NCBI GenBank assembly: GCA_965116465.1
Contig: OZ220687.1
Coordinates: forward strand, 2,564,596 to 2,628,595
Length of the DNA: 64,000 nt
Source: Acidimicrobiales bacterium
GTDB lineage: Bacteria; Actinomycetota; Acidimicrobiia; Acidimicrobiales; CATQHL01
Direction of reading: 5' to 3'
Below are positions 12,125 through 48,387 of the stretch, piece by piece (the first letter of the stretch is position 1; every line of letters begins with the position of its first letter). The notes below the pieces were generated by a model that saw only the letters and a program-made list of their open reading frames with translations, was not told where the DNA came from and ran no database searches. The translations under genes were made by a program, and so were the position numbers.

Positions 12125-12733
12125 TCAGGAGGGAGAGAACGAGCAGCCGGTCTGGAAGGGGGAGAGCTCCCCGGCGGGGACGTCCACGTCGAAGGCCTGC
12201 ATGAGTTGCGCGAGCAGGTTGTAGTAACCCACGAGTGCTACGAGTTCCATGACGCCTGCGCGGCCGAAGACGTCGCGGGCACCCTCGAAGACCTCGTCGT
12301 CGGGTCGCCGGCCCGCCAGCAGCGCCCGGCAGAGGGCGTGGGCGGCCGCTGCCGGCTCGTCGTCGAATTCGGGCGTCCGGCCGCTGTACAGATCCCTGAT
12401 CTGGTCTTCCCGCAGGCCCGCCCGGCGGGCGATGGGTTCGTGCGCCCACCACTCGAATCCCGAGCGCCAGTGGGCCGCAACCGTCAGGATGGCCACTTCC
12501 CGCACGAGCGGGCTCAGGTCGCAGCCGAAGCGGATGGCGGCACCCACCGACTGGAGGGCGTCGCCGACGACCGGGCTCAGCAGAAGGGCGTTGAACGGAC
12601 CAACCAGGCTGCCGTCGGTCTCGGTCAGCCGGAACGAGGCGTCGCGGGCCCTGTCCCCGCCGGCGATCGATTCGTAGAGGTGCTGCTGTTCGTCGGTGAG
12701 ATCCTCCGGGCGGAGCCCCTCCAGGCGGCTCAC
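12125..12733 (-). CDS. Carboxymuconolactone decarboxylase (AhpD-like) family protein
   Basis: The 202-aa C-terminal part of track ORF 12125..13156 matches the CMD family layout ([21 protein letters not shown]). GTG 12733 overlaps the upstream stop (GTGA). Confidence 0.7.
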
Positions 12734-13830
12734 GTCCCCAGGTCCACGATGGCGGCCACCGAGCCGCCACCCGCCGGGCCCTGCTGCAGGCCCGCCACCG
12801 AGACGAACACAGCGGGGTCGCCGATGGCGGCCGCGGCCACGCCGCCGACCGCCCCCTTGGTGTGGTGCGTGTGATGCACGTCGGAGTCGTTGAGTGCAAC
12901 CTGGCGCCGGTCCCGCAGCCGGCCCGATGGGTCGGCCTCGCACTTGATGAAGCAGTTGACGACGCGGCCGTCGAGATCCTCGGCGCGGGGGCGCTCGGGC
13001 AGGTCCAGTCCCGCCGAGCGGATGGCGTCGTAGATGCCGTCGAAGTCCAGGGCGTCGTTCATGACCGAGTGGCCGATGCGGTAGCGCCCGCCCACGCCGA
13101 GGCGATTGCCGACCACGACGATCTGGGCCTCCACCTGCTCGACACCCGACGAGCACGAGGCGACCGACGAGTACACCGACAGGTCGTGGGCGATCTGCTC
13201 GGGCCGGGGCCGGGGGATCTCGCCGAGCGCGGTGGCGATGCCGAGCGCCGAGGTGGCGTTGGAGACCGCCATCGACTCCATGGTGTCGGTGAGGGCGACG
13301 GTCTTGCCCCGGGAGTGGGCATCGGCGATGCGCTCGGCGGTCAGCAGCGGCGTCTTGGTCTGCACGAAGTGCACATCCGCACTGTCGCTGATGCCGGCGG
13401 CCTCCATGGCCTTGCGCACACCGGCGGCCACCTTGTCCACCATCTCCAGGCGTCCGATCTCCTCGGGCTGGATCGGCTCGGACACGGCGAAGCCCACGGC
13501 GAGGCGCTTCTCGTCGGCGGGCTCGGCGGGGCCGTCCACCTTGGCGAACACCGTCATGTGCGGGGAGATCACGCCGTCGCAGCCGCCGGACCAGGCGATC
13601 GGCACCTGCAGCGCCTCGGAGCGCGTCTTGCCGGCGTGGTCGACGAGGAAGTCCCGCAGCACCCGGTCGGCCAGCACGCGGGAGAAGTCGTTGACCCCCC
13701 CGTTGCCCTCCACCTTGCCGATGAGGGCCACGATCTCATCCGCGGCGAAGTCGCCGGCGGCGATGGCCGCCTCCAGTCCGGAGGTGTCCTGAACGTTCTC
13801 GAAGGGAATCTTGCGTACGACGTAGGGCAT
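12730..13830 (-). CDS. Ring-opening amidohydrolase, cyanuric acid amidohydrolase/barbiturase (AtzD/TrzD) family
   Basis: 366 aa from ATG 13830, with GAGGAGG upstream. Threefold internal organisation and family-typical segments ([35 protein letters not shown]). The length matches this family. Confidence 0.8.
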
Positions 13831-13928
13831 CTCCGGTCCTCCTCGCCCTTGGGGGATGGCTCTGACCAGCGGTGACGCCGAGAGGGTGAATGCCGCCGGC
13901 CGGACGGCCCCATGATAAGCAGTGTTGA

Positions 13929-13940
13929 ATCGTCTACGAT
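13929..13940. promoter_or_regulatory. Palindrome ATCGTCTACGAT in the divergent intergenic region; candidate operator
   Basis: Perfect 5-2-5 inverted repeat inside an AT-enriched pocket between divergent starts 13830(-) and 14010(+). TTGACA at 13945-13950 is nearby. Confidence 0.3.
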
Positions 13941-14009
13941 CCCGTTGACATTTTCCGATCCGGGGGCCGGGAGGGGCTGGCGCCGGGACCGACACGAGGA
14001 GACCATTCC

Positions 14010-15323
14010 ATGTCCGCTCCAAAGCACCTGCTACCTGGCCAGGAGACCCGAAGGGCCGGCGACCTGCTGTACGTCTCGACGATCTTCCCCGTCGACGGCG
14101 CTGGCCGTGCCGTGCAGTCCGCGTCGCATTCGCCCCATATGGGCGACTCCGACGTCTACACCCAGTCCAGCGTCATCCTCGGCGAGCTGGCACGGCGTGT
14201 GGAAGCCGACGGCAGTTCCATGGACCGGGTCCTGCGGGTCGAGGTGCAGCTGGCGGCGACGGCCGACTTCCACGAGTTCAAGCTGGCGTGGATCGACGCC
14301 TTCGGTGACGAGCCCCCGGCCCGCACCACCATCGTCGTCGGCGACGATCAGGTCGTGCCCGGCACCCTCGTGACGCTCAACGCCGTGGCTCTCAACGGTG
14401 GCTCGTCGGCGCAGCGGGAGACCATCCACACCGACGAGGCCCCCGATCCGATGCCCTACGAGCACGTCCCGCAGGCCATCAAGGGGGGGCACTGGGTGTA
14501 TCCCTCGGCGCTGCCGGCCTGCGACTACGAGACGGGCATCCCGCTGGGTGTGGGCAAGAACCTGCCCGCCTTCCCCTACTACGCCAACGACGCCACCGAC
14601 CAGGCCGAGTACGTGTTCGCCAACCTGCAGAAGGTGATGCAGGCCGCCGGCACCGAGGTGGCCAACATCATCAAGGCGCACCTCTACGAGCCCAGCCTCC
14701 TGTCGTTCCCCGACGTGGACGCCGTCTGGGCCCGCTACATGCCCCGCCCGCCGACCCGGGCCTCGATGGCCGCACGCGACCTGCTCGTGGAGCGGGCGGT
14801 GTTCGTGGCCAACCTGGTCGGCGTGATGCCCGACGACTCCATGGAGATCGTCGAGACCCGCAAGGGCATCCACTGGCACCCGGTGCTGGTGCGCAAGGTG
14901 AACTTCACGCCCGGCATCGCCGTCGGCGACGACTGGCTGTTCCTGGCCGGCCAGGTTCCGGTGCCGGACTTCCTGACCGGCGTGGTGGGCACCGGCCCGT
15001 CCAAGCTGCGTCACTACTTCAGTGACATCGAGATGCAGACCGAGACCACCATGCGTCTCATCCAGGACCAGATCGACTCCAACGGCTTCGAGTTGAAGGA
15101 CGTGGTGGACGCCCACATCTTCCTGGTGCACGCCCAGCGCGACTACCGGGGCTTCGAGCGGGCCTGGAACCGCATCATGGCCGAGGCCGGCATCGACGAC
15201 CCGCCGCCGATCACCCTCATCCCGTCACGCCAGCGCGACGGGAACACCGGCATCATGTTCCTCGGCCCCGACGAGCACCTCGTCCCCGACATAGAAATCG
15301 ACTTCATCCTCCACCGCAGCTGA
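14010..15323 (+). CDS. Triple tandem RidA/YjgF/TdcF-family domain protein
   Basis: 437 aa divisible into three ~130-160 aa RidA-like modules. Each has a buried G(D)xxFxSG/LAG-type segment near its start and a PARxxv-type segment near its end (GDLLYVST...PARTTIVV; GHWVYPSA...PTRASMAA; DDWLFLAGQ...). Confidence 0.7.
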
Positions 15324-15361: not shown

Positions 15362-15661
15362 ATGGACAATCTGGGCCGGGGTGAGGTCATCGACGTTCTC
15401 CGAGCACACAGGGACGCGCTCGCCGAGCGATTCGGTGTGGCGGAACTGGCCCTGTTCGGCTCGTTCGCCCGCGATCAGGCCACCGAGTCGAGCGATATCG
15501 ACATACTCGTCGGCTTCGACGGGCCCGCTACGTCAAAGTCGTACTTCGGTGTGCAGTTCTACCTGGAGGACCTGCTCGGTCGACGTGTCGACCTCGTGAC
15601 CACCAAAGCGCTCCGCCCCCGGTTCCGCCCCTACGTGGAGCGCGAGGCGGTCCATGTCTGA
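15362..15661 (+). CDS. Nucleotidyltransferase (MNT-type) antitoxin
   Basis: GSFARDQATESSDIDILV minimal nucleotidyltransferase motif. 8-bp overlap with the downstream HEPN gene. Confidence 0.8.
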   Translation: MDNLGRGEVIDVLRAHRDALAERFGVAELALFGSFARDQATESSDIDILVGFDGPATSKSYFGVQFYLEDLLGRRVDLVTTKALRPRFRPYVEREAVHV

Positions 15662-16004
15662 ACCCGAGGGAGATCGCGACTGGCGGCCCTACGTTCAGGA
15701 CATGGTCGAGTTCGGCGAACGGGTGGTCGCGTACGTCGAAGGATTGGATCAGCAGTCGTTCACGACCGATCAGCGCACCTACGACGCCACGCTGCGCAAT
15801 ATCGAACTCCTCGGCGAAGCGGCGACGCATGTCCCCGAGCGCGTGCGCGAGGCGCACCCTGAGATCGCTTGGCGCCAGATCATCGGAACCAGGAATCGCC
15901 TGGCGCACGGCTACCTCGGGATCGACGACGACGTCATCTGGGACATCATCCAGACCGACATCCCGGATCTGCTCGCAGCGCTCGGGCGCCTGCTGAACGA
16001 GTAG
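15654..16004 (+). CDS. HEPN-domain (DUF86/HepT-like) toxin
   Basis: RNRLAHGY (Rx4H HEPN motif), ~115 aa, paired with the MNT gene. Confidence 0.8.
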   Translation: MSEPEGDRDWRPYVQDMVEFGERVVAYVEGLDQQSFTTDQRTYDATLRNIELLGEAATHVPERVREAHPEIAWRQIIGTRNRLAHGYLGIDDDVIWDIIQTDIPDLLAALGRLLNE

Positions 16005-16122
16005 CAGCCAAGATCCGACCGGCCGGATGCGGCACTTCGGGTCTTCCACTGGCTATCCGCGCTATGTCGCGCCGACGCAAACGAGACACCGGGACCATGT
16101 ACCTCACGTTGATTGCCTGAGA

Positions 16123-16252
16123 GCGTTGTGCGCTTCACCGAGCGGGCCGGTGCTGAGGAGAGGCGCTTGCCGTCAGGCCGGTTCGACTATGGCGCCGTAT
16201 CGCTGCTGGGCAGCCTGCGGTGACGTGCCGAGGATCGCGCCGATGCGCTTCC
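16123..16252. repeat. Copy 1 of a ~130-bp dispersed direct repeat (3' end of gene 16173..16445 plus ~50 bp downstream)
   Basis: By-eye alignment with 17398..17527 shows mostly identical bases, e.g. gcgcttgccgt(c/t)aggccgg(t/g)tcgactatggcgccgtatcgctg. Confidence 0.75.
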
Positions 16253-16445
16253 AGGGGATGCCGTTGGCACGCGCCGAGGTGACCGCCTCGGCGATCTGCC
16301 GTTCCCCTCGCGCTCGGGCCAGGACGGCTCGCTCGAGCAGGTATTCCTCGACGGGTCGCTCATCATCGGATGCCGGCTCGTATGCCTCGCATCGCTCGGC
16401 AAGCTGGTCGGCGTGGTCGAGGATCTCTTGGATGGATCGGGGCAT
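16173..16445 (-). CDS. Small HTH protein, putative antitoxin of the upstream toxin-like gene
   Basis: 90 aa. The C-terminal IPWKRIGAILGTSPQAAQQRYG resembles an HTH. Separated by 4 nt from the upstream gene. Confidence 0.45.
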   Translation of the reverse strand: MPRSIQEILDHADQLAERCEAYEPASDDERPVEEYLLERAVLARARGERQIAEAVTSARANGIPWKRIGAILGTSPQAAQQRYGAIVEPA

Positions 16446-16449
16446 TGGG

Positions 16450-16671
16450 CTACTCCAGGAACTTCCGGCGAGCGGTCATGGCGTGAACGATGAAGTCGAT
16501 GCCCTCGCTTCGCGCGACTCCGATCTCGACGAGTCGTGCGGACTCGTCGGGCCCTATCAGCATGATCAGGTCTTCGAGGTCGAAGACTCGGATCGGGTTC
16601 CTGTACGCGTACAGCATGTCGTCATCGGAGATCCCGTGTTTTCGTGCGCTACCCAGGATAACCGGATCCAC
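16450..16671 (-). CDS. Small toxin-like protein (BrnT/DUF497-like, tentative)
   Basis: 73 aa. SARKHGISDDDMLYAYRNP and C-terminal HAMTARRKF recall BrnT-type toxins. Toxin-first order with a downstream HTH partner. Confidence 0.4.
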   Translation of the reverse strand: MDPVILGSARKHGISDDDMLYAYRNPIRVFDLEDLIMLIGPDESARLVEIGVARSEGIDFIVHAMTARRKFLE

Positions 16672-16684
16672 GAAATCAAGTTAT

Positions 16685-16736
16685 CTTGTGCGCTCCCATC
16701 GAGCGCGGGACGGGCCGTTTCCGCGAGGCGCACAAG
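16685..16736. other. 9-bp perfect inverted repeat CTTGTGCGC/GCGCACAAG with 34-nt spacer (intergenic RNA structure or operator)
   Basis: Arms at 16685-16693 and 16728-16736, lying between gene 16815..17288 and gene 16450..16671. Confidence 0.3.
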
Positions 16737-16814
16737 CAGATCGCGCACTGCCGCGCCGATGCGAGACGCGGGCATCGTCGACGGCGGTGAATGACAACGG
16801 GGCGCCTTTTCCTG

Positions 16815-17288
16815 TCAGTAGTCGAGACGGAGGCGCTGAGCTTCGGCAGTGAGTTCGTCGGCGATCGCGCGCCGTTCGGCATCGTCGCGGTGCTTGTACT
16901 CGATGACATCGGCGAGCAGGATCCTCCGACGGTTGCCCACCCGCCGGTGAGGGATCCTCCGCTCGTCGAGCAGCTTTACCAGGTAGGGCCGTGAAACGTT
17001 GAGCAGGTCAGCGGCCTGCTGAGTTGTCAACTCAGCATGGACAGGGGCGACCGTGACGCCATTGCCGTTGGAAATCTCAGTCAGGATGTCCACGAGCAGC
17101 CGCAAGGCGTGGCCCGGGATCTCCAGGGTGGCGCTGCTGTCGTCTGCGACCAGCGATACCGAGGCGGTATCGATGCCCGGATGGTGTCGCAGGAACCGCC
17201 CGAGCGTGTCGACGGCCTCGGCAGCCCGCGCCGCTGTTGCCTCGTCGGGCACAGCGAGTTGGTGTTCGAGCAATGCTGTGGTGGGCAT
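16815..17288 (-). CDS. Excisionase/MerR-type HTH DNA-binding protein (antitoxin-like)
   Basis: C-terminal TTQQAADLLNVSRPYLVKLLDERRIPHRRVGNRRRILLADVIEY is a typical HTH_17/excisionase motif. AAGGAGGA lies upstream of ATG 17288. Confidence 0.6.
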   Translation of the reverse strand: MPTTALLEHQLAVPDEATAARAAEAVDTLGRFLRHHPGIDTASVSLVADDSSATLEIPGHALRLLVDILTEISNGNGVTVAPVHAELTTQQAADLLNVSRPYLVKLLDERRIPHRRVGNRRRILLADVIEYKHRDDAERRAIADELTAEAQRLRLDY

Positions 17289-17299
17289 GGTCGGTCCTC

Positions 17300-17375
17300 C
17301 TTGTGTGATGCGCGTAGCGTAGGACGCTAGGTACGTGTCTGCAATACTCGAAATAGAAGTAGTATTCGAATCGAC
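17300..17375 (-). promoter_or_regulatory. AT-rich promoter/operator pocket upstream of the HTH gene
   Basis: Contains TAGCGT-AGG-ACGCTA and AATACT-N12-AGTATT inverted repeats. It is unusually AT-rich for this sequence. Confidence 0.3.
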
Positions 17376-17397
17376 ACAGCACGTTCGTGAGCCGGAA

Positions 17398-17527
17398 GCG
17401 TGTTGGTCTTCACCGATCGGGCTGGCGCTGGGGTGGGGCGCTTGCCGTTAGGCCGGGTCGACTATGGCGCCGTATCGCTGTTGCGCAGCCTGTGGCGAGG
17501 TGCCGAGGATCTTGCCGATGCGCTTCG
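17398..17527. repeat. Copy 2 of the ~130-bp repeat; carries a truncated 3' fragment of an HTH antitoxin-like gene (pseudogene remnant)
   Basis: The minus-strand reading gives ..KRIGKILGTSPQAAQQRYGAIVDPA-stop. There is no matching 5' part, and the fragment abuts the vapC stop at 17542. Confidence 0.7.
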
Positions 17528-17541
17528 ACCGTCCGGGGGAG

Positions 17542-17922
17542 TTACGCGCGGGCGGGGAGGGTCGCCACGTCGTAGGCGAGGAGTTGTTCGTCGGCTGTCA
17601 CGAGGGTGAGCGACTCGGCCTGTACCTGGGCCACGAGCATGCGATCGAACGGATCGGCGTGGTGCGGGGGTAGTCGGGTGGCCGCGTCGGCGTGCGCCGC
17701 CGTGATCGGCAACTCCTCGAACCCGCAGGCCAGGAGTTCGGCAACAAGCCCGTCGGGATACTCAATCCTGCCTTTCGCTCGCTTGATGCCGAGTTCCCAT
17801 GGCGTCACCGCCGAGAAGTACACCTCGTCTGCTGTTCTGAGGTGGTCTCCGCACTCGTCCCCGAGCAGGGCCGACTGGCCCAGCGCCCAGAGAGCGACAT
17901 GGCTGTCGAGCAACAACCTCAC
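17542..17922 (-). CDS. vapC: PIN-domain ribonuclease toxin VapC
   Basis: 126 aa from GTG 17922 (GTGA overlap with the antitoxin stop). N-terminal LLLDSH acidic residue and DPFDRMLVAQ motif. Confidence 0.8.
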   Translation of the reverse strand: MRLLLDSHVALWALGQSALLGDECGDHLRTADEVYFSAVTPWELGIKRAKGRIEYPDGLVAELLACGFEELPITAAHADAATRLPPHHADPFDRMLVAQVQAESLTLVTADEQLLAYDVATLPARA

Positions 17923-18176
17923 GACGGGTCGTCGAGCGCCGATTGTTCGAACAGGGCATTGACCTCCTCGTCGGAGCCGACGATGTCGTCGAGTATCCGT
18001 ATCTGACCGGCCCATGACCCCAGCACCCGCTGATCTCGGGCAGGTGGCCACGCAATGATCTTCGCCACCGGCCGCCCGTTGCGAGCCACGATCACGTCGC
18101 TGCCCGCCTCGGCCTGCCGGATCAACTCCGATAGCCGGCTCTTCGCCTCGTGGGTGTTCACCATGAGAGTTGACAT
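17919..18176 (-). CDS. Phd/YefM-family antitoxin
   Basis: MSTLMVNTHEAKSRLSELIRQAEAGSDVIVARNGRPVAKI is a typical Phd/YefM N-terminus. Overlaps vapC. Confidence 0.8.
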   Translation of the reverse strand: MSTLMVNTHEAKSRLSELIRQAEAGSDVIVARNGRPVAKIIAWPPARDQRVLGSWAGQIRILDDIVGSDEEVNALFEQSALDDPS

Positions 18177-18177
18177 G

Positions 18178-18194
18178 GTCTTAGCCTAGCTAAG
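18178..18194. promoter_or_regulatory. Perfect palindrome TCTTAGC-CTA-GCTAAGA directly upstream of the antitoxin ATG; candidate TA operator
   Basis: 7-3-7 inverted repeat ending 2 nt from ATG 18176. Confidence 0.4.
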
Positions 18195-18329
18195 ACTGTT
18201 ACTATCTCCTCCGGTCACGCGACACGCTGAGCCCGCAAGGGATCCAGAGCGATTCGAGGTCGGCGAGATCCACACGGGCGTAACTCGTGTTTCCGGCTTC
18301 AGCGGTTGCGCGAGGATGCTCGTGATGCC

Positions 18330-19925
18330 ATGACTGCTCGACCCGCCCGACGCCTTCTCACCACTGGGTGCGCCGTCCTCGCTCTCGCTGCCGCATGCGG
18401 ACACGTGGATGTTCGGTCGTCGGCGCCTGCGACGACCGAACCAATGCCTCCGAACACCGAGGTGGACGGGGGGTCGGTGGATGGCCCGTCGTCGTCGGCG
18501 CCTGGGACGACTGAGCCGATCTATCCGAGCACCGAGGTGGATGGGGGGCGAGTGGCTGATTCGCCACCGCTGACCACGACGACCGAGCCGGTCCCTCCGA
18601 GTACCCAGGTCGACGGTGGGCGGGTCGCCGAGCCGTCAACGGTGCCCGCGACGACGGCCGACTCGACGGAAGCGCCGCCAGCACCCAGAAGTGTCGACGC
18701 AGATGATCCCGGCGCATTGTCCGCCGATGCGCGCTCGCTCATCGGTAGCTGGCACACCGCCGTGTTAGCGACGACCGGGGTGTGGCCGGGCTTCGATCTT
18801 GCATCGATCCCAACTGTGTTGGCAGCAATCGACGACGAGGGAGCCATCCGAGCCACGGTGGCGTTCAACCACCCGAACCCGCTTGTACTCGGCACTCTGG
18901 TTCGGAACCTGGACGTCGACGGCCACGAGGTCGCGGTCATCGGAGAGGTGGCCGACCCGGATTGGCTGGTCGCCCGAGCCCCGTTCGACTTCTTCGCCGA
19001 CGTCGGTGGGACGGACACGTTCGTGCTGATCAGCCAGGAAGGTGAACTCGGTCTTGAGTCTGGGACCCCCGAGTTCATCGCCACGCTCGTGCACGAGGCG
19101 TTCCACCGGTATCAGTGGGATGAGTGGGCCCCGCGTGCGACGGGGCAATACATCGAGACTTACGACTTCTCGGCGGCGAACCTCGAACTGGCGCTGCTCG
19201 AGAACCGGATCCTCATCGCCGCCTACCAGGCCGAGGATCCCGGTGACCTCGAACGCCTCGCCCGCCAGTTCGCCGCGGTACGTGCCACGCGTCACCAACG
19301 CGACCAGGCCTGGGACGATCGGGTCGACCATGACGAAGCACAGGAACGCACGGAGGGATCCGCTCAATTCGTCGAGCACCGGATCGGCGACTCGATCGGC
19401 AACGTCTACCGCACGGCAACCAACCACACCGAGGACTTGGAGTTCCACGACGAGATCCTCTCGAACCCGGAGGTGCTCGTCGCCAACATCGCGTGGTACG
19501 AAGTCAGCATCAAGACGTACTTCAGCTTCGGTCGCTTCTACGGCAGCGGAGCCACGCTGCTCGTCCTACTAGATCGCCTCGGTGTGCCCGATGTCGCCCA
19601 GCAACTGCAGGACGGCAGGACACCCGCGGGCCTGCTGGAGCACCACATCGCACCGCTTGGTGATCTCGACGAACTGGTCGCCGATGCCCAGGCCGAGCAC
19701 GACCCCGATGGCCGACTCGCTGCGGTTGCAGTGACCCTCTCTGAACTGGCGATCGACGAACCGGCGACCGCCCTGGGCCATGATGGCGAATCTGTCCTGA
19801 CAGTTACACAGATTGCCTGCCTTGTGGCTCATGGGATCGACATCGGCGACCGCATGGGCATTCCTCAGAACGTCGTTGACGAGTGCCTGGTCGAAGCGGA
19901 TGACTCCGATGGCGCTTCCCCCTGA
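18330..19925 (+). CDS. Putative lipoprotein with Thr/Pro-rich tandem repeats and an HExxH motif (possible metallopeptidase)
   Basis: Signal/lipobox LLTTGCAVLALAAAC. Three TTEPxxPxTxVDGGxV repeats. LVHEAFHRY motif. Start at ATG 18330; TTG 18306 is possible. Confidence 0.6.
   Translation: MTARPARRLLTTGCAVLALAAACGHVDVRSSAPATTEPMPPNTEVDGGSVDGPSSSAPGTTEPIYPSTEVDGGRVADSPPLTTTTEPVPPSTQVDGGRVAEPSTVPATTADSTEAPPAPRSVDADDPGALSADARSLIGSWHTAVLATTGVWPGFDLASIPTVLAAIDDEGAIRATVAFNHPNPLVLGTLVRNLDVDGHEVAVIGEVADPDWLVARAPFDFFADVGGTDTFVLISQEGELGLESGTPEFIATLVHEAFHRYQWDEWAPRATGQYIETYDFSAANLELALLENRILIAAYQAEDPGDLERLARQFAAVRATRHQRDQAWDDRVDHDEAQERTEGSAQFVEHRIGDSIGNVYRTATNHTEDLEFHDEILSNPEVLVANIAWYEVSIKTYFSFGRFYGSGATLLVLLDRLGVPDVAQQLQDGRTPAGLLEHHIAPLGDLDELVADAQAEHDPDGRLAAVAVTLSELAIDEPATALGHDGESVLTVTQIACLVAHGIDIGDRMGIPQNVVDECLVEADDSDGASP
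18416..18636 (+). repeat. Three imperfect in-frame ~72-75-bp tandem repeats inside the lipoprotein gene
   Basis: Repeated accga(a/g)cc...ccgag(c/t)acc(g/c)aggt(g/c)ga(c/t)gg(g/t)gggc units, read directly from the sequence. Confidence 0.6.
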
Positions 19926-19990: not shown

Positions 19991-21451
19991 GTGACTGAAC
20001 GTGCCCTGATGATCCAGGGGACGGCCTCGGGGGTTGGCAAGTCGCTGCTTGTGGCGGGGCTGTGCCGGCTGCTGGCGCGCTCGGGGGTGCGGGTGGCGCC
20101 CTTCAAGCCCCAGAACATGAGCAACGCGGCGGCGGCCTGCCCCGCCGGCGGCGAGATCGGCCGGGCGCAGGCCCTGCAGGCGTTCGCCTGCGGCATCGAG
20201 CCGACCGTGGACATGAACCCGGTGCTCGTGAAGCCCGAGGCCGACCACACAGCTCAGCTCATCGTGTCGGGCGAGGTGCGTGGCAGGCTCGACGCGGCAC
20301 GATTCCGGGAGGACCGCCAACCGCTGCTGCCTGAGGTCCTCGCCGCATTCGAGCGTCTGGCCGGCAGCTACGACTTCATCGTGGTGGAGGGCGCCGGCTC
20401 GCCCGCCGAACCGAACCTGCGGGCCGGTGACATCGCCAACATGGGATTTGCCCGGGAGGTATCGCTGCCGGTCTGGCTGGTGGCCGACATCGACCGCGGC
20501 GGATCCTTCGCGGCGCTTCTGGGCACGGTGGAGGCGCTGGAGCCCGCCGATCGGAGGCTTGTGGAGGCGTTGCTGGTGAACCGCTTCCGGGGCGAGGCGG
20601 CCCTGCTCGACGAGGCCTTCGTCTGGTTGGCCGAGCGAACGGGGCTGCCGGTCCTGGGAGCCGTCCCGTACCTGCCCGACCTGCTGCTGCCCGAGGAGGA
20701 CGCCCCCTACGCCCTCATGGAGGGCCGGATCGGGACCGCGACGGACGAAGCGAACCGGCTTCGGGTGGGCGCCGTCCACTACCCGCGCGCCTCCAACATC
20801 GCGGATGTGGACCCGTTGGTGGCCGACCCGGCCGTGGAGTTCACGTGGCTGCGCGACCCGGCCGAGCTTGTCGGGCTCGACCTGGTGATCCTGCCGGGCT
20901 CCAAGGCCGTCGCCGCCGATCTCAACTGGCTGCGAGAGCGCGGTTGGGTGCCGGCGCTGGAGCGGCACCTGCGCTACGGCGGCCGGGTGCTCGGAATCTG
21001 CGGCGGCCTCCAGATGCTGGGCCGGCGCATCCTGGATCCTGGCGAGATCGAGGGTCCGGCCGAGACCCCTGGACTCGGCTGGTTGGACTTCGAGACTGAG
21101 ATCCAGCCGCAGAAGCTGGTGCGGCAGGTCACCGGCCGAGCGACCTGGCCGGAGGCTGTTGAGTTCTCCGGCTACGAGATCCGCCACGGAAACAGCGAGG
21201 CCGATCCCGTCATCCACCCGTTCAGCGCTCGCTCAGCCGACGGGCAGATCCTCGGTACCTACATCCACGGCCTCTTGGACCGAGCCGACTTCCGCCGCGC
21301 CTTCCTGCAGCACTGGCTCGCCTGGGACTCCGATCACGCCGAGGACCAAACCACCCGCTGGCACCGCGACCTCGACCGTCTCGCCGACACCCTCCGCGAC
21401 CACCTCGACCTGACGTATCTTGAGAAACGCGTCGGCGAGGCGGTACTTTGA
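19991..21451 (+). CDS. cobQ: Cobyric acid synthase
   Basis: N-terminal MIQGTASGVGKS P-loop and C-terminal glutamine amidotransferase GICGGLQMLG...HG. AGGAG lies upstream of GTG 19991. Confidence 0.9.
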   Translation: MTERALMIQGTASGVGKSLLVAGLCRLLARSGVRVAPFKPQNMSNAAAACPAGGEIGRAQALQAFACGIEPTVDMNPVLVKPEADHTAQLIVSGEVRGRLDAARFREDRQPLLPEVLAAFERLAGSYDFIVVEGAGSPAEPNLRAGDIANMGFAREVSLPVWLVADIDRGGSFAALLGTVEALEPADRRLVEALLVNRFRGEAALLDEAFVWLAERTGLPVLGAVPYLPDLLLPEEDAPYALMEGRIGTATDEANRLRVGAVHYPRASNIADVDPLVADPAVEFTWLRDPAELVGLDLVILPGSKAVAADLNWLRERGWVPALERHLRYGGRVLGICGGLQMLGRRILDPGEIEGPAETPGLGWLDFETEIQPQKLVRQVTGRATWPEAVEFSGYEIRHGNSEADPVIHPFSARSADGQILGTYIHGLLDRADFRRAFLQHWLAWDSDHAEDQTTRWHRDLDRLADTLRDHLDLTYLEKRVGEAVL

Positions 21452-21482
21452 GCGGCTGGGCCGTGGAGGGAAGGAGCGACAG

Positions 21483-22025
21483 GTGGAGCAGGTGATTCTC
21501 TACAGCTTGAACACCGAGGCGCGGACGCCCACTTGACAGGAGTGCTGCCGCGTTCGGGACTTCCTGAACGAGCATTCCGTCGAGTTCGACGACCGCAACA
21601 TCCGCCAGAGCACCGGTGCCCGTGACGAGTTGCTGGCACTGACCGGGGACCTCGTCGTGCCGACGCTCGTCGCCGGCGACCGCCAGGTGGTGGGGTTCGA
21701 TGCGGCAGCACTTGCGGAGATCGCGGGGCTCCAGCTGCCGGACGGGCCGGCGCAGAGCGCGGCGACCGCTGCAGGCCCCCCGGGGAACTCCCTCGAGGCA
21801 GATCAGGGTCGGCGGGTCATCGCCTCCGGCGACACCCTTGCCGACGACCTGCAGAGCCTCCTGGGCCGCATCAACGCGGAGCTCGACTACAACGTCGCCA
21901 AGGGCGGCACGCCGTTCCGCCAGGGGATGCACGACGGCCTTCGTTTCGCCCAGGACGCCGTGGCGGACCTGCTGACACGCCACGGCCACCCCGCCGAGGT
22001 CGAGCCCAGAGACTGGGACTTCTGA
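21483..22025 (+). CDS. Glutaredoxin-like thioredoxin-fold protein with in-frame TGA (codon 18) at the first redox position: candidate selenoprotein (UxxC), or a nonsense pseudogene
   Basis: GGGAAGGAG lies 6 nt before GTG 21483. The frame keeps high GC3 on both sides of TGA 21534-21536. Translation is VEQVILYSLNTEARTPT-U-QECCRVRDFLNEHSVEFDDRNI...VVPTLVAGDRQVVGFD, where U-Q-E-C aligns with the Grx CPYC and the cis-Pro VP is present. The track ORF 21630.. starts inside the fold. Confidence 0.45.
21537..21566 (+). other. Hairpin immediately 3' of the in-frame TGA (SECIS-like candidate)
   Basis: CAGGAG(U) 21537-21543 pairs with (A)CUUCCUG 21559-21566. The apical CCG-CGUU-CGG mini-stem starts about 12 nt after the UGA. 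Confidence 0.3.
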
Positions 22026-33279: not shown

Positions 33280-35499
33280 TCAGCGCCCGTTGCCACCGCC
33301 GGCGGCGGCCCGCCAGACCTTCTCGGGCGTGAACGGCATGTCGAGGTGGCGGACTCCGAACGGTGCCAGAGCGTCGAGGACGGCGCTCTGCACGGCGGGT
33401 GTGGCGCCCACGGTCCCGGCCTCGCCGATGCCCTTCGCGCCCAGCGGGTTGAGCGGCGTGGGTGTCGTGTTGCGGTGGGTCTCGAAATCGCAGAACTCCG
33501 CCGCCGACGGGATGAGGTAGTCCCCGAAGTTGGTGGTGCGGGGCCCGCCGCCGGTGTCGTAGACCATCTCCTCCCACAGCGCCTGGGCGATGCCCTGGGC
33601 GATGCCGCCGTGCTGCTGGCCCTCGGCCAGCAGCGGGTTGATGACGTTGCCGCAGTCGTCCACGCAGAGGTGGCGCAGTTGGCGGACGTCGCCGGTCTCG
33701 GTGTCCACCTCGACGACGGCCACGTGTGTGCCGAACGGGAACGTCCGGGAACCCTGGTCGAAGTCGCACTCGGCGGCCAGCGGCTCGGGGGAGAGTTCGG
33801 CGAGCCTGCTCCACGAGAGCACGGTGTCCGGCGACCCGGCCACGCCGAGGCCCTCCTCGTGGTACACGGCGATGTCGTCCACGTTCGCCTCGAGATGCTC
33901 GGCGGCGACCTGGCGGGCCTGGTCCACGACGGCGGCGGCGGCGCGGTCGATCGCGGAGCCGCCCAGTTGCAGGGAGCGCGAGCCGTATGTGCCGTTGCCG
34001 CGGGGAACCAGGTCGGTGTCGGACTGGACGACGCTGATGTGCTGCCAGGGGATCCCCAGTTGCTCCGAGGCGATCTGGGCGTAGGTCGTCTGGTGGCCCT
34101 GCCCGTGGGACGAGACGCCCGACAGCACCGTTACCGTGCCGTCGTCGTGGATCTCCACCGAGCCGTAGTCGTTGCTGGGACCGTTGCCGGTGACCTCGAT
34201 GTAGTTGGCGACGCCGATGCCGAGCTGGTGGCGGTCTCCCCGGCGGCGACGCTCGGCCTGTTCCCTGCGCAACTCCTCGTAGCCGACGAGTTCGACCGCG
34301 CGTTCCATCGCCGCCAGGTAGTTGCCGGCGTCGTAGACGGCGCCCGTGGGGGTCTCAACAGGGTCGCTGTGGGTCTCGATCAGGTTCCGGCGCCGCACCT
34401 CGACCGCGTCCATGCCCAGCTCGGCCGCCAGGAGGTCCATGGCCCGCTCCACGGTCGCGGCCGCCTCGGGCCGCCCCGCCCCTCGCAGGGCGCCGGTGGG
34501 CGCGGTGTTGGTCACGACGCTCCTCGCCCGGAAGTCGATCCGCGGGATCCGGTAGGTGCCCGAGGCCATCATCTTGGTGTAGAAGATCAGCCAGGCGCCG
34601 ATGTCGGGGTAGGCGCCGGCGTCCTGGGTGACGCTCCACTTCATGCCCACGACGGTGCCGTCGGACCTCGCCCCGATCTCCACGTCCTGGACCTGGCCAC
34701 GGGCGTGGCCCATGTGGAGCATGTTCTCGGTGCGGGACTCGATCCAGAGCAACGGCTCGCCGAGCCGCACAGCCAATGCCGCGGTCACGACCTGCTCCAC
34801 ATAGGCGTGGCCCTTGGCTCCGAACCCGCCGCCGGTTGCCGGAACCACCACATGGATCCGGTCGATGTCGAGTTCCAGGCAGTCGGCGATGGTCTGCTGG
34901 ACCGAGAACGGGCACTGGGTGGGGACCCAGAGCCGCAGGCGCCCCTGACCGTTGTCGCCCCCGACGTTCGGGATCGCCAGGATCCCGTTGGTCTCCATCG
35001 GCGCGGGCGCGATCTTCTGGTTCACGTATCTGAACGACACGACGACGTCGGCGTCGTCGAGCGCGCCCGGGTCCTCGGCCGGGTCGACCTCGAACACGAC
35101 CTCGGTGCTGTCCATCGGATCGGAGATGCCGGGCAGCTCCTCGATCTCGACGACGACCTCCTCGGCTCGGTCGCGCGCCTCCGCGAGGGTGTCGGCCACG
35201 ACGACCGCCACGGGATCGCCCACGTATCCGACCGTCCCGCGAGCCAGAGCCGGACGCCCGAAGTGAGAGGGTGCCGGCGGGCCGGCCAGCATGTCGGGAA
35301 TGTTCAGGTCGTCCGCCGTGTAGACGCCTTCGCCTCCGGAGATGCCCACGATCCGCCCGTGCGGCACGTCGGAGCGCACGAAGACGACGCTGCGCGCCTC
35401 GACGTCGAGGTCGTCCACGTAGGGGCGGCCGCCGACCAGCAGAGCCGCATCCTCGCGGCGCAGCACGCTGTGGCCGAGGATCGAGCCTGCCGCCGCCAT
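33280..35499 (-). CDS. Xanthine dehydrogenase/CO dehydrogenase-family molybdopterin-binding large subunit (stand-alone)
   Basis: N-terminal GHSVLRREDAALLVGGRPYVDD, 739 aa, aldehyde oxidase/XDH a/b-hammerhead plus Mo-binding layout. No adjacent FeS or FAD subunit genes. Confidence 0.85.
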   Translation of the reverse strand: MAAAGSILGHSVLRREDAALLVGGRPYVDDLDVEARSVVFVRSDVPHGRIVGISGGEGVYTADDLNIPDMLAGPPAPSHFGRPALARGTVGYVGDPVAVVVADTLAEARDRAEEVVVEIEELPGISDPMDSTEVVFEVDPAEDPGALDDADVVVSFRYVNQKIAPAPMETNGILAIPNVGGDNGQGRLRLWVPTQCPFSVQQTIADCLELDIDRIHVVVPATGGGFGAKGHAYVEQVVTAALAVRLGEPLLWIESRTENMLHMGHARGQVQDVEIGARSDGTVVGMKWSVTQDAGAYPDIGAWLIFYTKMMASGTYRIPRIDFRARSVVTNTAPTGALRGAGRPEAAATVERAMDLLAAELGMDAVEVRRRNLIETHSDPVETPTGAVYDAGNYLAAMERAVELVGYEELRREQAERRRRGDRHQLGIGVANYIEVTGNGPSNDYGSVEIHDDGTVTVLSGVSSHGQGHQTTYAQIASEQLGIPWQHISVVQSDTDLVPRGNGTYGSRSLQLGGSAIDRAAAAVVDQARQVAAEHLEANVDDIAVYHEEGLGVAGSPDTVLSWSRLAELSPEPLAAECDFDQGSRTFPFGTHVAVVEVDTETGDVRQLRHLCVDDCGNVINPLLAEGQQHGGIAQGIAQALWEEMVYDTGGGPRTTNFGDYLIPSAAEFCDFETHRNTTPTPLNPLGAKGIGEAGTVGATPAVQSAVLDALAPFGVRHLDMPFTPEKVWRAAAGGGNGR

Positions 35500-35533: not shown

Positions 35534-36898
35534 TCAGGCCGACGGGGCGTAGCCGATCAGGTCCAGGATGACGTGCGCGCCGGGCACCTGCAGCGGTCCG
35601 CCGATGCGCATCGTCGTGGAGGCCGGCTTGGAGCCGGGGAAGTGGCGTGCCCACTCGTTGATGGAGATCTGGAAGTCGGCGAAGTCGGCGTGGTAGCACT
35701 GCCGCTTGCAGATGTTCTCCAGCGAGGTGCCGGCGGCCTCGCAGATGGCCGAGATGTTGCCCAGCAGGTACTCCATCTCCATCTGCGGCGGCAGGCCGTA
35801 GTGCGGGAATCCGGGATTGCGCTGGACGCTCTTGGGCAGGCTGCCCCGCTCGTCGGTGGGGATCATGGTGCTGAAGAACAGGTAGTCACCCGCCTTCACG
35901 GCCTGCGGCTCGTGCCATGGGGGCTCCACCGCGTCCGACGTCTCGATGGTCTCCTTGGAGATGGAGGCGTCATCGGCCAGCAGCTTCATGGCGATCTCGA
36001 TGCGCGAGCCCATGCCGCCCAGGCCCATGTAGGGCACCACGACGCGGGCCGGCGGGTTCTCCGGGAACCACTGGCGCCACACCCTGTCCATGCCCGCGAA
36101 GTCGTTCGGGCCCGACAGGTACACGGTTGCCTTCACGCAGTTGTCCTGCAGCGACGAGGCGCCGGCGGCCGCGGCGATCTTCTCGAGCTTCTGCAGGGTG
36201 TAGTCGGTCTGGCGCTCGATCGGCGAGTCGTACCAGAGGTACGGGTTGACGCGTGCTTCGGGGGCGAGGCCGCTGAGGGGGCCCATGTGGCGCTCCGACA
36301 TCCAGTCGCCCATCCAGTCCACCGGGATCTCCCCGGCCAGGAAGATCCAGTCGCCGCGCCGGATGGCCGGCGAGTAGCCCGCCAGCGGCGACGGCACGCC
36401 CTCGGGTGTCTCGTAGCCGACGCTCGGACCGCCGGGGATCGCCAGCAGGTCGACCTCGATGAGCGAGTCCGCCACCAGCAGTTCCTTGATGCCCATGCCG
36501 GTGGAGGCAGGGCGGGGCGGCTTGATGTAGAGGTCGCGGGTGCGCAGGTAGGGCGTGATGGTGATGCGCGGCCAGGTGTTGCCTTCGGCGAACTCCTCCA
36601 TCGTCGGGTACTCCGAGGTGAACCACTGGTAGATGCGCACCACGTCGGTGGCGATGTCGCAGCCGGCGGCGGCCAGGGTGGACGTGAGGTTGTCGAGGAT
36701 GATTTTGGACTGCAGTTCCAGGTGGTTGTCCAGGTACGGGTTGCGCCCGTCACCGCCACCTTCGGCCGTGATGCCCGTCTCGAAGTCGGTGGCGAGCTGA
36801 CCGGACAGGAAGACCCAATCACCGGCCTTGACGCACGGCGTGTAGGGCATGAGCGGCATGGGCTCGCCGCCCCAGATGTGTTGGATGTCGCTGGACAT
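35534..36898 (-). CDS. Triple tandem RidA/YjgF-family domain protein (second copy of this architecture)
   Basis: 454 aa in three RidA-like modules (GDWVFLSGQ.., GDWIFLAGE.., GDYLFFSTM..). Confidence 0.7.
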   Translation of the reverse strand: MSSDIQHIWGGEPMPLMPYTPCVKAGDWVFLSGQLATDFETGITAEGGGDGRNPYLDNHLELQSKIILDNLTSTLAAAGCDIATDVVRIYQWFTSEYPTMEEFAEGNTWPRITITPYLRTRDLYIKPPRPASTGMGIKELLVADSLIEVDLLAIPGGPSVGYETPEGVPSPLAGYSPAIRRGDWIFLAGEIPVDWMGDWMSERHMGPLSGLAPEARVNPYLWYDSPIERQTDYTLQKLEKIAAAAGASSLQDNCVKATVYLSGPNDFAGMDRVWRQWFPENPPARVVVPYMGLGGMGSRIEIAMKLLADDASISKETIETSDAVEPPWHEPQAVKAGDYLFFSTMIPTDERGSLPKSVQRNPGFPHYGLPPQMEMEYLLGNISAICEAAGTSLENICKRQCYHADFADFQISINEWARHFPGSKPASTTMRIGGPLQVPGAHVILDLIGYAPSA

Positions 36899-46032: not shown

Positions 46033-48387
46033 GTGAGCTGGGTCGGCCGCTCCATCCGCAGGGTCGAGGATCCGACCCTGCTATGCGGCGCGGGCATGTT
46101 CGTGGGCGACATAGGCGGTGCCGCCTCGGTGCGGTTCGTCCGAAGTCCGGTGGCGAGCGGTCTCATCCGGGCGGTGCGTGGCCCCGCGTACACGATTGCG
46201 GACCTCGACGCCGACGGAGTCGGGAACATCGAAGCGGTCCTGCACCGTCCCGACTACGTGCGGCTCGCCCAACCGTTGCTCGCCAGGGAGCGGGTGCGGT
46301 ACGTGGGTGAACCGGTTGCGGTGGTGGTCGGCGCAACCGCCGCGGAGGCCGAGGATCTGGCCGAGCAGGTGGAACTGGACATCGAGCCGCTCCCGGCGGC
46401 GGTGGGCCTCGAGGCCGCCCTGGCTCCCGGCGCCCCGCTGGTGCATCCCGACGAGTCGGAATCCAACGTGATGGTGGCCGGCGAGATGGCCACGCCCGAA
46501 CTGGCCGAGACTCTGGAGCGCGCCCACGCCATCGTCGAGTTGGAGATCACCTCCGGGCGTCAGGCGGCGCTGCCGCTGGAGGCGCGCGGCTCGCACGCCG
46601 TCACCGAGCGCTTCGGTGGCCGCACGACGCTGCACGCCTCGATCCAGGCGCCGCACATGATCCGGACCGTCATCTGCGACCTGCTGGGCATGCCCGAGGC
46701 CGACCTCCGGGTGGTGGCGCCGGACGTGGGCGGCGCCTTCGGCCAGAAGCTGCCGCTGGCCCGGGAGGACGCCATCGTGGTCTGGCTGTCGCGTCGCCTG
46801 GGGCGTGCCGTGGCCTGGTTAGAGGACCGCAGCGAAAACCTCATGGCCTCGTGGCACAGCCGCGAGCAGCGCTACCGGCTGCGGGCCGGGTTCGACTCGA
46901 CGGCCCACCTCGAGGCGTTGCAGGCCGACGTGGCGGCCAACGTGGGGGCGTGGCCGTGCTATCCGATCACCTGGGGAGTCGAACCGCTCATGGCTCTGGC
47001 GGAGCTACCAGGTCCCTACACGCCGGAGCACTACGGCGTGCGCTCACGCGGCGTGGCCTCGCACACCTGCCCCATGTCCCCCTACCGGGGCGTGTCGCGA
47101 CCCGTGATCACCCTGGCGCTGGAGCGGCTCATGGACATCGCCGCCGCCCGCCTGGACATCGACCCGGTGGAGATCCGCCGGCGGAACCTGCAGAGCGACT
47201 TCCCGCACATCTCGCCGACCGGCCTGCGCCACGACGAGGGCACCTATCGCGAGGCCATGGAGCTGGCGGTCGGCCACGTCGACCTGGGGGCGTTCCGCGC
47301 CCGCCAGCACGCCGCCCGCGCCGCCGGGGGAACCCTGCCGGGGATCGGGATCTGCACCTTCAGCGAGCGCACCGGCTACGGCACGCCGGCGTTCGCGGCC
47401 CGGGCGATGGGGGTGACTCCGGGCTTCGAGAACGTGGAGATGTCCATGGACCCGTCGGGCTACGTGACCCTGCGCATCGGCGCCTCGCCGCACGGCCAGG
47501 GCCTGGAAACCGCCCTGTCGCAGATCACCGCCGACGAGTTGGGCACCGATCCGGGGCGCGTGCGGGTCGTGGCCAGCGACACCGACCGGACACCCTACGG
47601 CTGGGGGTCGTTCGCCAGCCGTGCCATGGTGCTGGCGGGCGGGGCGACCTACCTGGCGGCACAGAAGCTGGCCACCCAGCTCGGCTCGCTGGCCGCGGAG
47701 GTGCTCGAGGCGGCGGCCGACGACATCGTCCTGGCCGACGGGCGCGCCACGGTTGCGGGCACCTCGGTGGGCGTGGACATAGCCGAGCTTGCTCGCATCG
47801 CCCACCATCACACGCAGCGGCTGCCGGACGGCGCGATGGGGGGCCTCTCGGCACAGGCGGGCTATGACCCGGCGGGCACGTTCTCCAACGCCTGCCACGT
47901 GGCTGAGGTGGACGTGGATCCGGACACGGGCGGCGTGTCGATGCGGCGCTTCGTCGTGGTGGAGGACGCCGGGCGGCTCATCAACCCGATGATCGCGGAC
48001 GGGCAGATCCGCGGCGGGGTGGCGCAGGGGATCGCCAACGCCCTGCTCGAGGAGGTCGTCTACGACGAGGACGGCAACATCCTCACGACGTCCCTCATGG
48101 ACTACCTGCCGCCGACCGTCGCGGAGATCCCCGATATCGAGATCCTGCACCTCGAGACCGCCAGCGACGCCACCATCACCGGCGCCAAGGGGCTCGGCGA
48201 GGGCGGCACCATCGGGGCTCCCGCCGCGGTGCTGAACGCCGTGAACGACGCCCTCGCCCATCTGGGGGTGGAGCTGAACGAGATGCCCGCCACGCCCGAG
48301 CGGGTCCGGGCCGCGGTGCGCGCCGCAGCCCGCGGGGATTCCCTGGGCGACACGAATCGACTGACGCAGGAGGCCGCAGTCCGATGA
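46033..48387 (+). CDS. XDH/CODH-family molybdopterin-binding large subunit (copy 1 in this operon)
   Basis: N-terminal [22 protein letters not shown], 784 aa, C-terminal [15 protein letters not shown]. Confidence 0.85.

Follow-up and report, generated by a model that had tools for sequence, protein, structure and literature searches.

The stretch of DNA analyzed here (hereafter, the window) comprises 64,000 nucleotides (nt) of contig OZ220687.1 from an Acidimicrobiales bacterium. On its plus strand, positions 21483 to 22025 form a reading frame with a single internal stop codon, TGA at 21534 to 21536, and a terminal stop, also TGA, at 22023 to 22025. Read through the internal stop, the frame encodes a 180-residue protein consisting of a glutaredoxin (Grx) domain, a linker, and a C-terminal helical hairpin, within which the internal TGA would specify selenocysteine (Sec, U) at residue 18, the first position of an active-site motif U-Q-E-C(-C). 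The translation runs VEQVILYSLNTEARTPT*QECCRVRDFLNEHSVEFDDRNIRQ...VVPTLVAGDRQVVGFD..., with QECCRVRDFL directly after the TGA and some 95 further residues at the end. A strong, purine-rich, Shine-Dalgarno-like ribosome-binding site, GGAGGGAAGGAG (21465 to 21476, plus strand), lies 6 nt before the GTG start at 21483, and homologues have ATG or GTG at the aligned codon (their proteins beginning MSQV, MDRP, MEQP, or VEQV). The window has a G+C content of 69.5%, and its confident genes have a G+C content at third codon positions (GC3) near 0.9, a bias that the frame from 21483 to 22025 shares. Of the 44 open reading frames (ORFs) of at least 150 amino acids (aa) in the window, 31 end in TGA, the usual stop there, such that the genetic code shows no sign of reassignment; a crude scan of the window for other genes with in-frame TGA codons returned none that were convincing. 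Mechanical ORF calling recovers only a 131-aa product from this locus, starting at TTG 21630 and ending at 22025. The original prediction, made from the sequence alone, had described the ribosome-binding site 6 nt before GTG 21483, a frame continuing through the TGA to 22025 with steady codon bias, and a conventional ORF call beginning in the middle of a fold; direct reading, GC3, and the like treatment of database homologues by gene callers agree with it on all three. The translation it gave was in the correct frame and left out only the residues EQ after the first V, a trivial omission.

The N-terminal part of the protein (residues 4 to 84, encoded at 21492 to 21734 on the plus strand) is recognizable as a Grx/NrdH-like thioredoxin-fold domain, with a VVP cis-Pro motif and a GFD motif, by Pfam, phmmer, and Foldseek comparisons. 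With U read as C, it scores 43.5 bits against the Pfam glutaredoxin model PF00462 (gathering cut-off, 22.9 bits; E = 3.8e-11), and residues 4 to 67 align with profile positions 1 to 58 of 60. The TGA therefore falls inside the domain, and strand beta1 and the active-site loop come from the 17 residues upstream of it. In a phmmer search of the PDB, the top-ranking solved structure is 7c10_A, named “dithiol cGrx1” (E = 9.6e-11, residues 15 to 84), and the alignment pairs TPT-C-QEC-CRVRDFL of the window protein with SNT-C-PHC-FTVKEFL of 7c10, placing the U column on the first Cys of the CPHC motif. The Clostridium oremlandii cGrx1 is a native selenoprotein with a U(C)PxC motif, whose Sec was mutated to Cys for crystallography (PMC7642778). 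We modelled the fold with AlphaFold2 (AF2) on P0074, a homologue that retains the N-terminus, at moderate confidence (mean predicted local distance difference test score [pLDDT], 71). The model has the order b1-a1-b2-a2-b3-b4-a3 (E5-9, H19-31, E36-40, H45-54, E62-65, E68-71, and H75-88), and its residue 19, which occupies the Sec column, is the first residue of helix alpha1. Its top Foldseek match is again 7c10 (template modelling [TM] score, 0.85; root mean square deviation, 1.8 Å; 38% identity), followed by BC3987, NrdH, and mycoredoxin-type proteins, with TM scores of ~0.8 for the NrdH structures 1h75 and 4hs1. The V-P motif containing the cis-Pro is invariant in the family, in keeping with membership of the thioredoxin fold. 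Sequence profile and model together assign the N-terminal part to the glutaredoxin/NrdH-type thioredoxin folds and put Sec18 at the start of helix alpha1, and both the glutaredoxin-like layout (CxxC helix, cis-Pro, GF) and the placement of the TGA on the N-terminal redox Cys, as originally proposed, are confirmed.

Beyond the Grx domain, a low-complexity linker (21735 to 21836, plus strand; pLDDT, 36 to 52), predicted to be disordered, carries a nearly invariant motif, PPGNSL(x3)DQG, with PPGNSL encoded at 21777 to 21794; the rest of the linker is rich in Ala, Pro, and Ser and is poorly conserved. The linker leads to a predicted two-helix hairpin (residues ~119 to 166, 21837 to 21980, plus strand; AF2 pLDDT, 81 to 91), whose helices span residues 101 to 121 and 126 to 148 in a model of the part after the UGA. 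An invariant patch, E..YN.AKG....R.GMHDGLRFA, clusters around the turn of this hairpin. The C-terminal domain has no match in Pfam at E ≤ 1, none past the Grx part in a sequence search of the PDB, and none of significance in a Foldseek search of the PDB; a resemblance to ferritin-like two-helix hairpins (e.g., EncB) was weak (E of ~3.8) and was not accepted. A profile search of 1.84 billion cluster representatives recovered the domain exclusively downstream of this Grx type, and a more divergent subfamily shares it in the form ...REMEFNAAKDxxPYRDGQHDGMRFARDAILRIL. Targeting, oligomerization, and substrate binding are the obvious options for its role.

To characterize the family, 5.8 billion proteins were searched, yielding 74 relatives, and 185,579 species-representative genomes were searched, yielding 64 loci, 62 of which are complete over the TGA region; a profile search covered the 1.84 billion cluster representatives. 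The tblastn matches in the 64 loci span query residues 1 to 180, TGA included. All 62 complete loci, from several classes and two phyla, have TGA at the Sec column and none has a Cys codon, the outcome of the comparison of homologues at that column that the original prediction had suggested. The gene is found in Acidimicrobiia/Acidimicrobiales (including “Candidatus Spongiisocius” and other metagenome-assembled genomes [MAGs] named after sponges), in Gaiellales/Thermoleophilia, in Euzebyaceae and Egibacteraceae (Nitriliruptoria-type MAGs), in unclassified Actinomycetes, and, outside these groups, in two Anaerolineaceae MAGs and one MAG labelled Alphaproteobacteria. Related loci share 46 to 91% identity. 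Around the TGA, the peptide LNT[DE]ARTPT-U-QECCRVR[DE] is invariant in the 62 loci, with third codon positions varying freely: in the upstream stretch of 13 codons, entropy averages 0.23, 0.12, and 1.30 bits per column for codon positions 1, 2, and 3, respectively, and pairwise comparisons give 11244 synonymous versus 3156 non-synonymous codon differences. At the sequence level, these figures establish that the upstream codons evolve under purifying selection in this frame, and the conservation of the frame across the TGA is a matter of observation. A divergent member (P0071, encoded at locus L068; 41% identity) likewise has the TGA, there in the motif U-M-E-C-C, with AAGGAGG before an ATG start.

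The database versions of these proteins are, with one exception, truncated. The 74 relatives begin past the Sec column at scattered positions (MRDFL.., MECCRV.., MLALTG.., MPTLV.., and MGFD..), indicating that gene callers stop at the conserved TGA and restart at the next start codon; such entries are labelled as glutaredoxin family or hypothetical proteins, and NCBI names one such shortened version “glutaredoxin family protein.” The exception, P0074, which could be traced to no DNA record, is alone among the entries in having a complete N-terminus; its Sec column holds Gly (TPT-G-QECC), most likely because UGA was translated as Gly at its source, probably under an alternative code. Neither Cys nor another sense codon was detected at the Sec column in the 62 genomes or among the 1.84 billion representatives. 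Many other database proteins of 57 to 68 aa, among them P0222 and P0223, start exactly at the post-Sec position of the Grx profile (VRDHL.., VRDYL..) and are devoid of the C-terminal domain; these may be further stand-alone selenoprotein glutaredoxins truncated at a UGA.

Directly after the UGA, the mRNA can form an extended hairpin resembling a Sec insertion sequence (SECIS) element (21531 to 21585, plus strand), whose minimum free energy structure (-31.5 kcal/mol) is a 23-bp interrupted hairpin with a 4-nt bulge and a basal stem that includes the UGA. Above this basal stem, a lower stem, GGAGUGCU/AGCAUUCC, pairs 21539 to 21546 with 21571 to 21578 and supports an apical stem-loop, CGUUCGGG-ACUU-CCUGAACG (21551 to 21570, plus strand), in which 21551 to 21558 pair with 21563 to 21570 and the ACUU loop (21559 to 21562) is closed by a G-C pair. 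The apical stem, a candidate SelB-binding element by its pairing and by a recoding test, begins 14 nt after the UGA, with its loop 23 to 26 nt after it. The original prediction had drawn a 30-nt fold at 21537 to 21566 in this place: a hairpin does lie directly after the TGA, and the fold as drawn, which can form at -7.9 kcal/mol, is not the best one. The hairpin is more stable than expected from dinucleotide shuffles (z = -3.67, with none of 200 folding as well), and, as a control for protein-level constraint, was compared with synonymous versions that encode the identical peptide with codons sampled from the usage of the window. Against 200 such recodings, a 48-nt segment gives a z of -3.5, and values of about -3 apply to the clade containing the window (clade A), every member of which passes the same comparison for the 24-nt apical part (p ≤ 0.014).

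Comparison among clades adds to this picture. The Val codon in the apical stem of clade A is invariably the rare GTT, and in a second group, whose stem reads GUGCGGG/CCUGCAC, a U-A pair is replaced by G-C in seven sequences, a compensatory change that joins a synonymous Val site with the first base of an Asn, His, or Gln codon. The apical pairing holds in 95.8% of cells over 21 distinct sequences, and none of 500 shuffles reaches the observed score. The Spongiisocius group instead presents CCGGGU-N8-ACCUGG inside a longer stem (z of about -2.3 versus synonymous recoding), and the Gaiellales/Anaerolineae group (clade B) has G(U)GAGGGAG-UUU-CUCUCC at the same place, where 25 sequences keep the rare codons AGG and TTT without change (in the genes of the window, 4 of 545 Phe codons are TTT) and adjacent third positions exceed 1.2 bits of entropy. 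In every clade, a hairpin lies 3′ of the UGA, with its stem starting 12 to 18 nt after it. Overall, the case for a structured element is good within the window clade and suggestive in the others.

Evidence for Sec use in these lineages is indirect and comes from a second gene and from the literature. On a Gaiella contig (L061), 7.5 kb from the Grx gene, an Rdx/SelW-like ORF (L061:2412-2663, plus strand) contains a TGA at 2466 within IEYC-VP-TGA-G, a CxxU arrangement, and matches the Pfam Rdx model at E = 4.4e-16 when U is read as C. This ORF has a GC-rich hairpin, GCCACC-GGUCU-GGUGGC (loop, GGUCU), ~16 nt after its UGA, and the loop G-U falls at +23/+24, compared with +24/+25 after the UGA of the Grx gene on the same contig; it is a probable second selenoprotein gene. 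Within the class Acidimicrobiia, all 84 complete genomes of Actinomarinales contain selA, selB, selC, and selD (bioRxiv 10.64898/2026.04.03.716425), and most sponge-symbiont bins of one sponge metagenome contain the COGs for SelA and SelB together (PMC5649159). In a separate observation, the conjugative plasmid pYA7-1a of the actinobacterium Arthrobacter sp. YA7-1 (L067; NZ_CP110115.1, 25387 to 38589) has fdh, selD, selA, and selB as a complete set adjoining a Tn3 transposase, from which it follows that the Sec trait is mobile in Actinomycetota.

Several results weigh against Sec insertion at this locus. Scans for tRNA-Sec, together with tblastn searches using SelA, SelB, and SelD of E. coli and of the Arthrobacter plasmid, detected no selA, selB, selD, or tRNA-Sec in either the 64 kb of the window or the related loci, which total 1.2 Mb, indicating that the Sec machinery is not clustered with the gene. 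RNAalifold over all 63 sequences gave only a weak signal and no single consensus structure, because the helix register differs between clades, and folding energies in the Gaiellales-type clade are no better than those of recoded controls. The check for covariation that had been proposed for the hairpin thus yielded one compensatory pair and no consensus across clades; the change affects one base pair only and probably reflects few evolutionary events. Rfam returned no match at its gathering threshold over the whole window, a null that we take to be uninformative since the SECIS models in Rfam are a poor representation of the bacterial elements (bioRxiv 10.64898/2026.04.03.716425). A CRISPR-DR match from Rfam around the site (E = 8.4) is attributable to chance.

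Weighing all of this, we infer that positions 21483 to 22025 very probably constitute a functional gene for a 180-residue selenoprotein, an unannotated, two-domain, and apparently Sec-only variant of the known selenoprotein-glutaredoxin class. Of the two outcomes originally envisaged, the comparative data (TGA in every complete locus, the active-site column, and the hairpin) support a Sec-containing redox protein joined to an additional C-terminal domain. The other, that an ordinary glutaredoxin gene lost function through a TGC- or TGT-to-TGA mutation or owes its stop to a sequencing error, would accord with one in-frame stop in place of a Cys and with the way gene callers treat the locus; it is effectively excluded by the recurrence of the TGA in 62 of 62 independent genomes of several classes and by codon-position-specific conservation both up- and downstream of it, and it retains next to no credence given that no intact Cys form appeared among matches from the 5.8 billion proteins or the 1.84 billion representatives. 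Nor could one contaminating sequence account for the pattern, as the related loci differ from one another to the extent noted above.

That the TGA truly ends a conserved 17-residue leader, and that a re-initiated protein functions without beta1 and the first active-site residue, has precedents insofar as attenuators do include short, conserved upstream ORFs with an RNA hairpin after them, and database gene calls do start downstream. Yet what the upstream peptide contributes to the Grx fold is exactly its beta1 strand and loop, the TGA coincides with the catalytic column, and the downstream starts chosen by gene callers (MRDFL, MLALTG, MTGEL, MPTLV, and MGFD) are not conserved, the first in the window being TTG 21630, in mid-fold and with no conserved ribosome-binding site noted; we consider this arrangement highly improbable. 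Somewhat less far-fetched, and still improbable, is read-through of the UGA without Sec, in which near-cognate or suppressor decoding would insert Trp, Cys, or Gly, the hairpin would merely promote read-through, and there would be no Sec machinery at all. The failure to find that machinery in the window and related loci is what this explanation would anticipate, and P0074 does have Gly at the column, though probably from its source's translation table. Against it, strict retention of UGA at the catalytic Cys/Sec column of a thioredoxin fold is a signature of Sec, the closest structure (7c10) is that of a native selenoprotein, a related contig carries another gene of selenoprotein type (CxxU, Rdx family), ordinary genes of the window end in TGA more often than in any other stop, and Trp or Gly as the nucleophile would inactivate the enzyme.

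If Sec is inserted, SelB carrying Sec-tRNA(Sec) would be recruited by the mRNA hairpin at 21531 to 21585, with its apical stem-loop at 21551 to 21570, and would read the UGA at 21534 to 21536 as selenocysteine. The protein would then most likely act as a thiol-disulfide (selenylsulfide) oxidoreductase, in which Sec18 attacks a substrate disulfide or an oxidized sulfur or selenium center, Cys21 resolves the mixed intermediate to form an intramolecular Se-S bond, and a reductant subsequently recycles the enzyme. In these hosts, the thiol used may not be glutathione. The C-terminal hairpin and linker probably contribute to partner specificity or oligomerization.

In the window, the gene lies downstream of cobQ (cobyric acid synthase; 19991 to 21451) and is followed on the opposite strand by a Cupin_5/DUF985 gene, an arrangement common only to its closest relatives; no neighbor of the Grx gene is universally conserved across loci. 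Within the Spongiisocius clade, about 18 genomes have the stop of the Grx gene overlapping the start of a polar amino-acid ATP-binding cassette (ABC) transporter operon, ordered ATPase, permease, binding protein, and then a VOC/methylmalonyl-CoA-epimerase-like gene (L014:10546-13694, plus strand, with equivalents in L015, L021 to L030, L032, L035, L036, L038, L041, and L047). The best NCBIfam matches of the transporter components are the cystine transporter TcyN, a cystine permease, and a cystine-binding protein, all scoring below their cut-offs. This linkage is a lead toward the reduction of an imported disulfide and provides no evidence for such a role in the organism from which the window derives. 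A more specific proposal, which we regard as speculative and rather doubtful, is that the family forms an obligately Sec-dependent redox module with no Cys form anywhere, in which U-x-E-C-C would act together with the C-terminal hairpin and PPGNSL on a specific small molecule or metal(loid) rather than on general protein disulfides; for example, it might reduce a disulfide or a selenium compound imported by the cystine-like ABC importer of those genomes.

Other features of the window were noted in passing. Just upstream of cobQ, positions 15362 to 19925 have a lower GC3 (0.72 to 0.83, versus about 0.9 elsewhere) and contain an MNT/HepT toxin-antitoxin pair (15362 to 16004), an HTH_17 gene and a PIN-domain gene on the minus strand (16815 to 18051), and an ORF of 539 aa (18306 to 19925) with no Pfam or NCBIfam match; this segment may be an inserted island. 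Positions 12730 to 15323 encode an AtzD/TrzD-type ring-opening amidohydrolase (of the cyanuric acid/barbiturate type; E = 1.7e-133) adjoining a 437-aa protein with three RidA/L-PSP repeats, and a second multi-RidA protein is encoded at 35534 to 36898. Three large subunits of xanthine-dehydrogenase/CoxL-type molybdenum hydroxylases are also present (33280 to 35499, minus strand; 46033 to 48387 and 48885 to 51026, plus strand), relatives of which lie beside the Grx gene in about 14 loci.

Selenoprotein glutaredoxins with a UxxC motif are established, and as such the chemistry proposed here is not new; the family itself, widespread in sponge-associated Acidimicrobiia and soil Gaiellales, appears to have gone unrecognized. 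Its seeming lack of a Cys counterpart is unusual among selenoproteins and offers a natural case for asking why Cys cannot replace Sec. Once recognized, the family would allow the annotation of hundreds of genomes to be corrected and would mark the lineages concerned as selenium users. The result is a solid discovery at the level of annotation and introduces no new principle.

In E. coli fdhF, the SECIS element places an apical stem-loop, to which SelB binds, a short distance 3′ of the UGA; its loop contains G and U, and a U is bulged out. Hairpins of the present family resemble it in lying directly 3′ of the UGA with an apical stem 12 to 18 nt after it, and the Gaiellales-type hairpin additionally has a bulged U and a GUU loop. 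They differ from the fdhF element in having no sequence similarity to it and no covariance-model match, and the loop of the window clade is ACUU closed by G-C.

Among characterized proteins, the nearest is cGrx1 (PDB 7C10/7C12; motif, U-P-H-C), which shares with the window protein a small YruB/NrdH-like Grx fold and a Sec that opens the UxxC motif at the start of helix alpha1, with ~38% identity over ~70 residues. cGrx1 is, however, a single-domain protein of ~84 residues from a Firmicute and has Cys paralogues (cGrx2), whereas the window protein has U-Q-E-C-C, a longer invariant loop before the Sec (LNTxARTPT), an extension of ~95 residues composed of the linker and helical hairpin, and no detected Cys form; on the same comparison, no msrA was seen in the annotated part of the neighborhood. 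The YruB family (TIGR02196) is the best NCBIfam match, at 45.3 bits against a cut-off of 88.55, and NrdH-redoxin (TIGR02194) scores 25.4 bits against a cut-off of 85.75, such that the window protein falls outside both. Its Grx domain shares with these families the CxxC position, the cis-Pro, and the GF motif; YruB and NrdH, by contrast, are single-domain Cys proteins, and no nrdE, nrdF, or nrdI lies beside the gene. The Uxx-star families (NF041212, NF041211, and NF047338) are likewise distant Grx-like folds that use selenocysteine (Table 1 of PMC13188914), but the window protein scores only 33.7, 25.9, and 21.3 bits against their respective cut-offs of 66, 100, and 97, below the level of membership, and their Sec sits three residues before the stop (U-x-x-stop) rather than at residue 18 of 180.

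The experimentally verified families of prokaryotic selenoproteins include selenoprotein glutaredoxin (PF00462, UxxC; PMC13188914). The present family is not separately listed in the 2026 inventory of 119 prokaryotic selenoprotein families, and no Pfam or NCBIfam model covers it as a selenoprotein. Four differences set it apart from the known Grx selenoproteins: the apparent lack of a Cys form, the motif U-x-E-C-C, the long invariant loop preceding the Sec, and the two-domain architecture.

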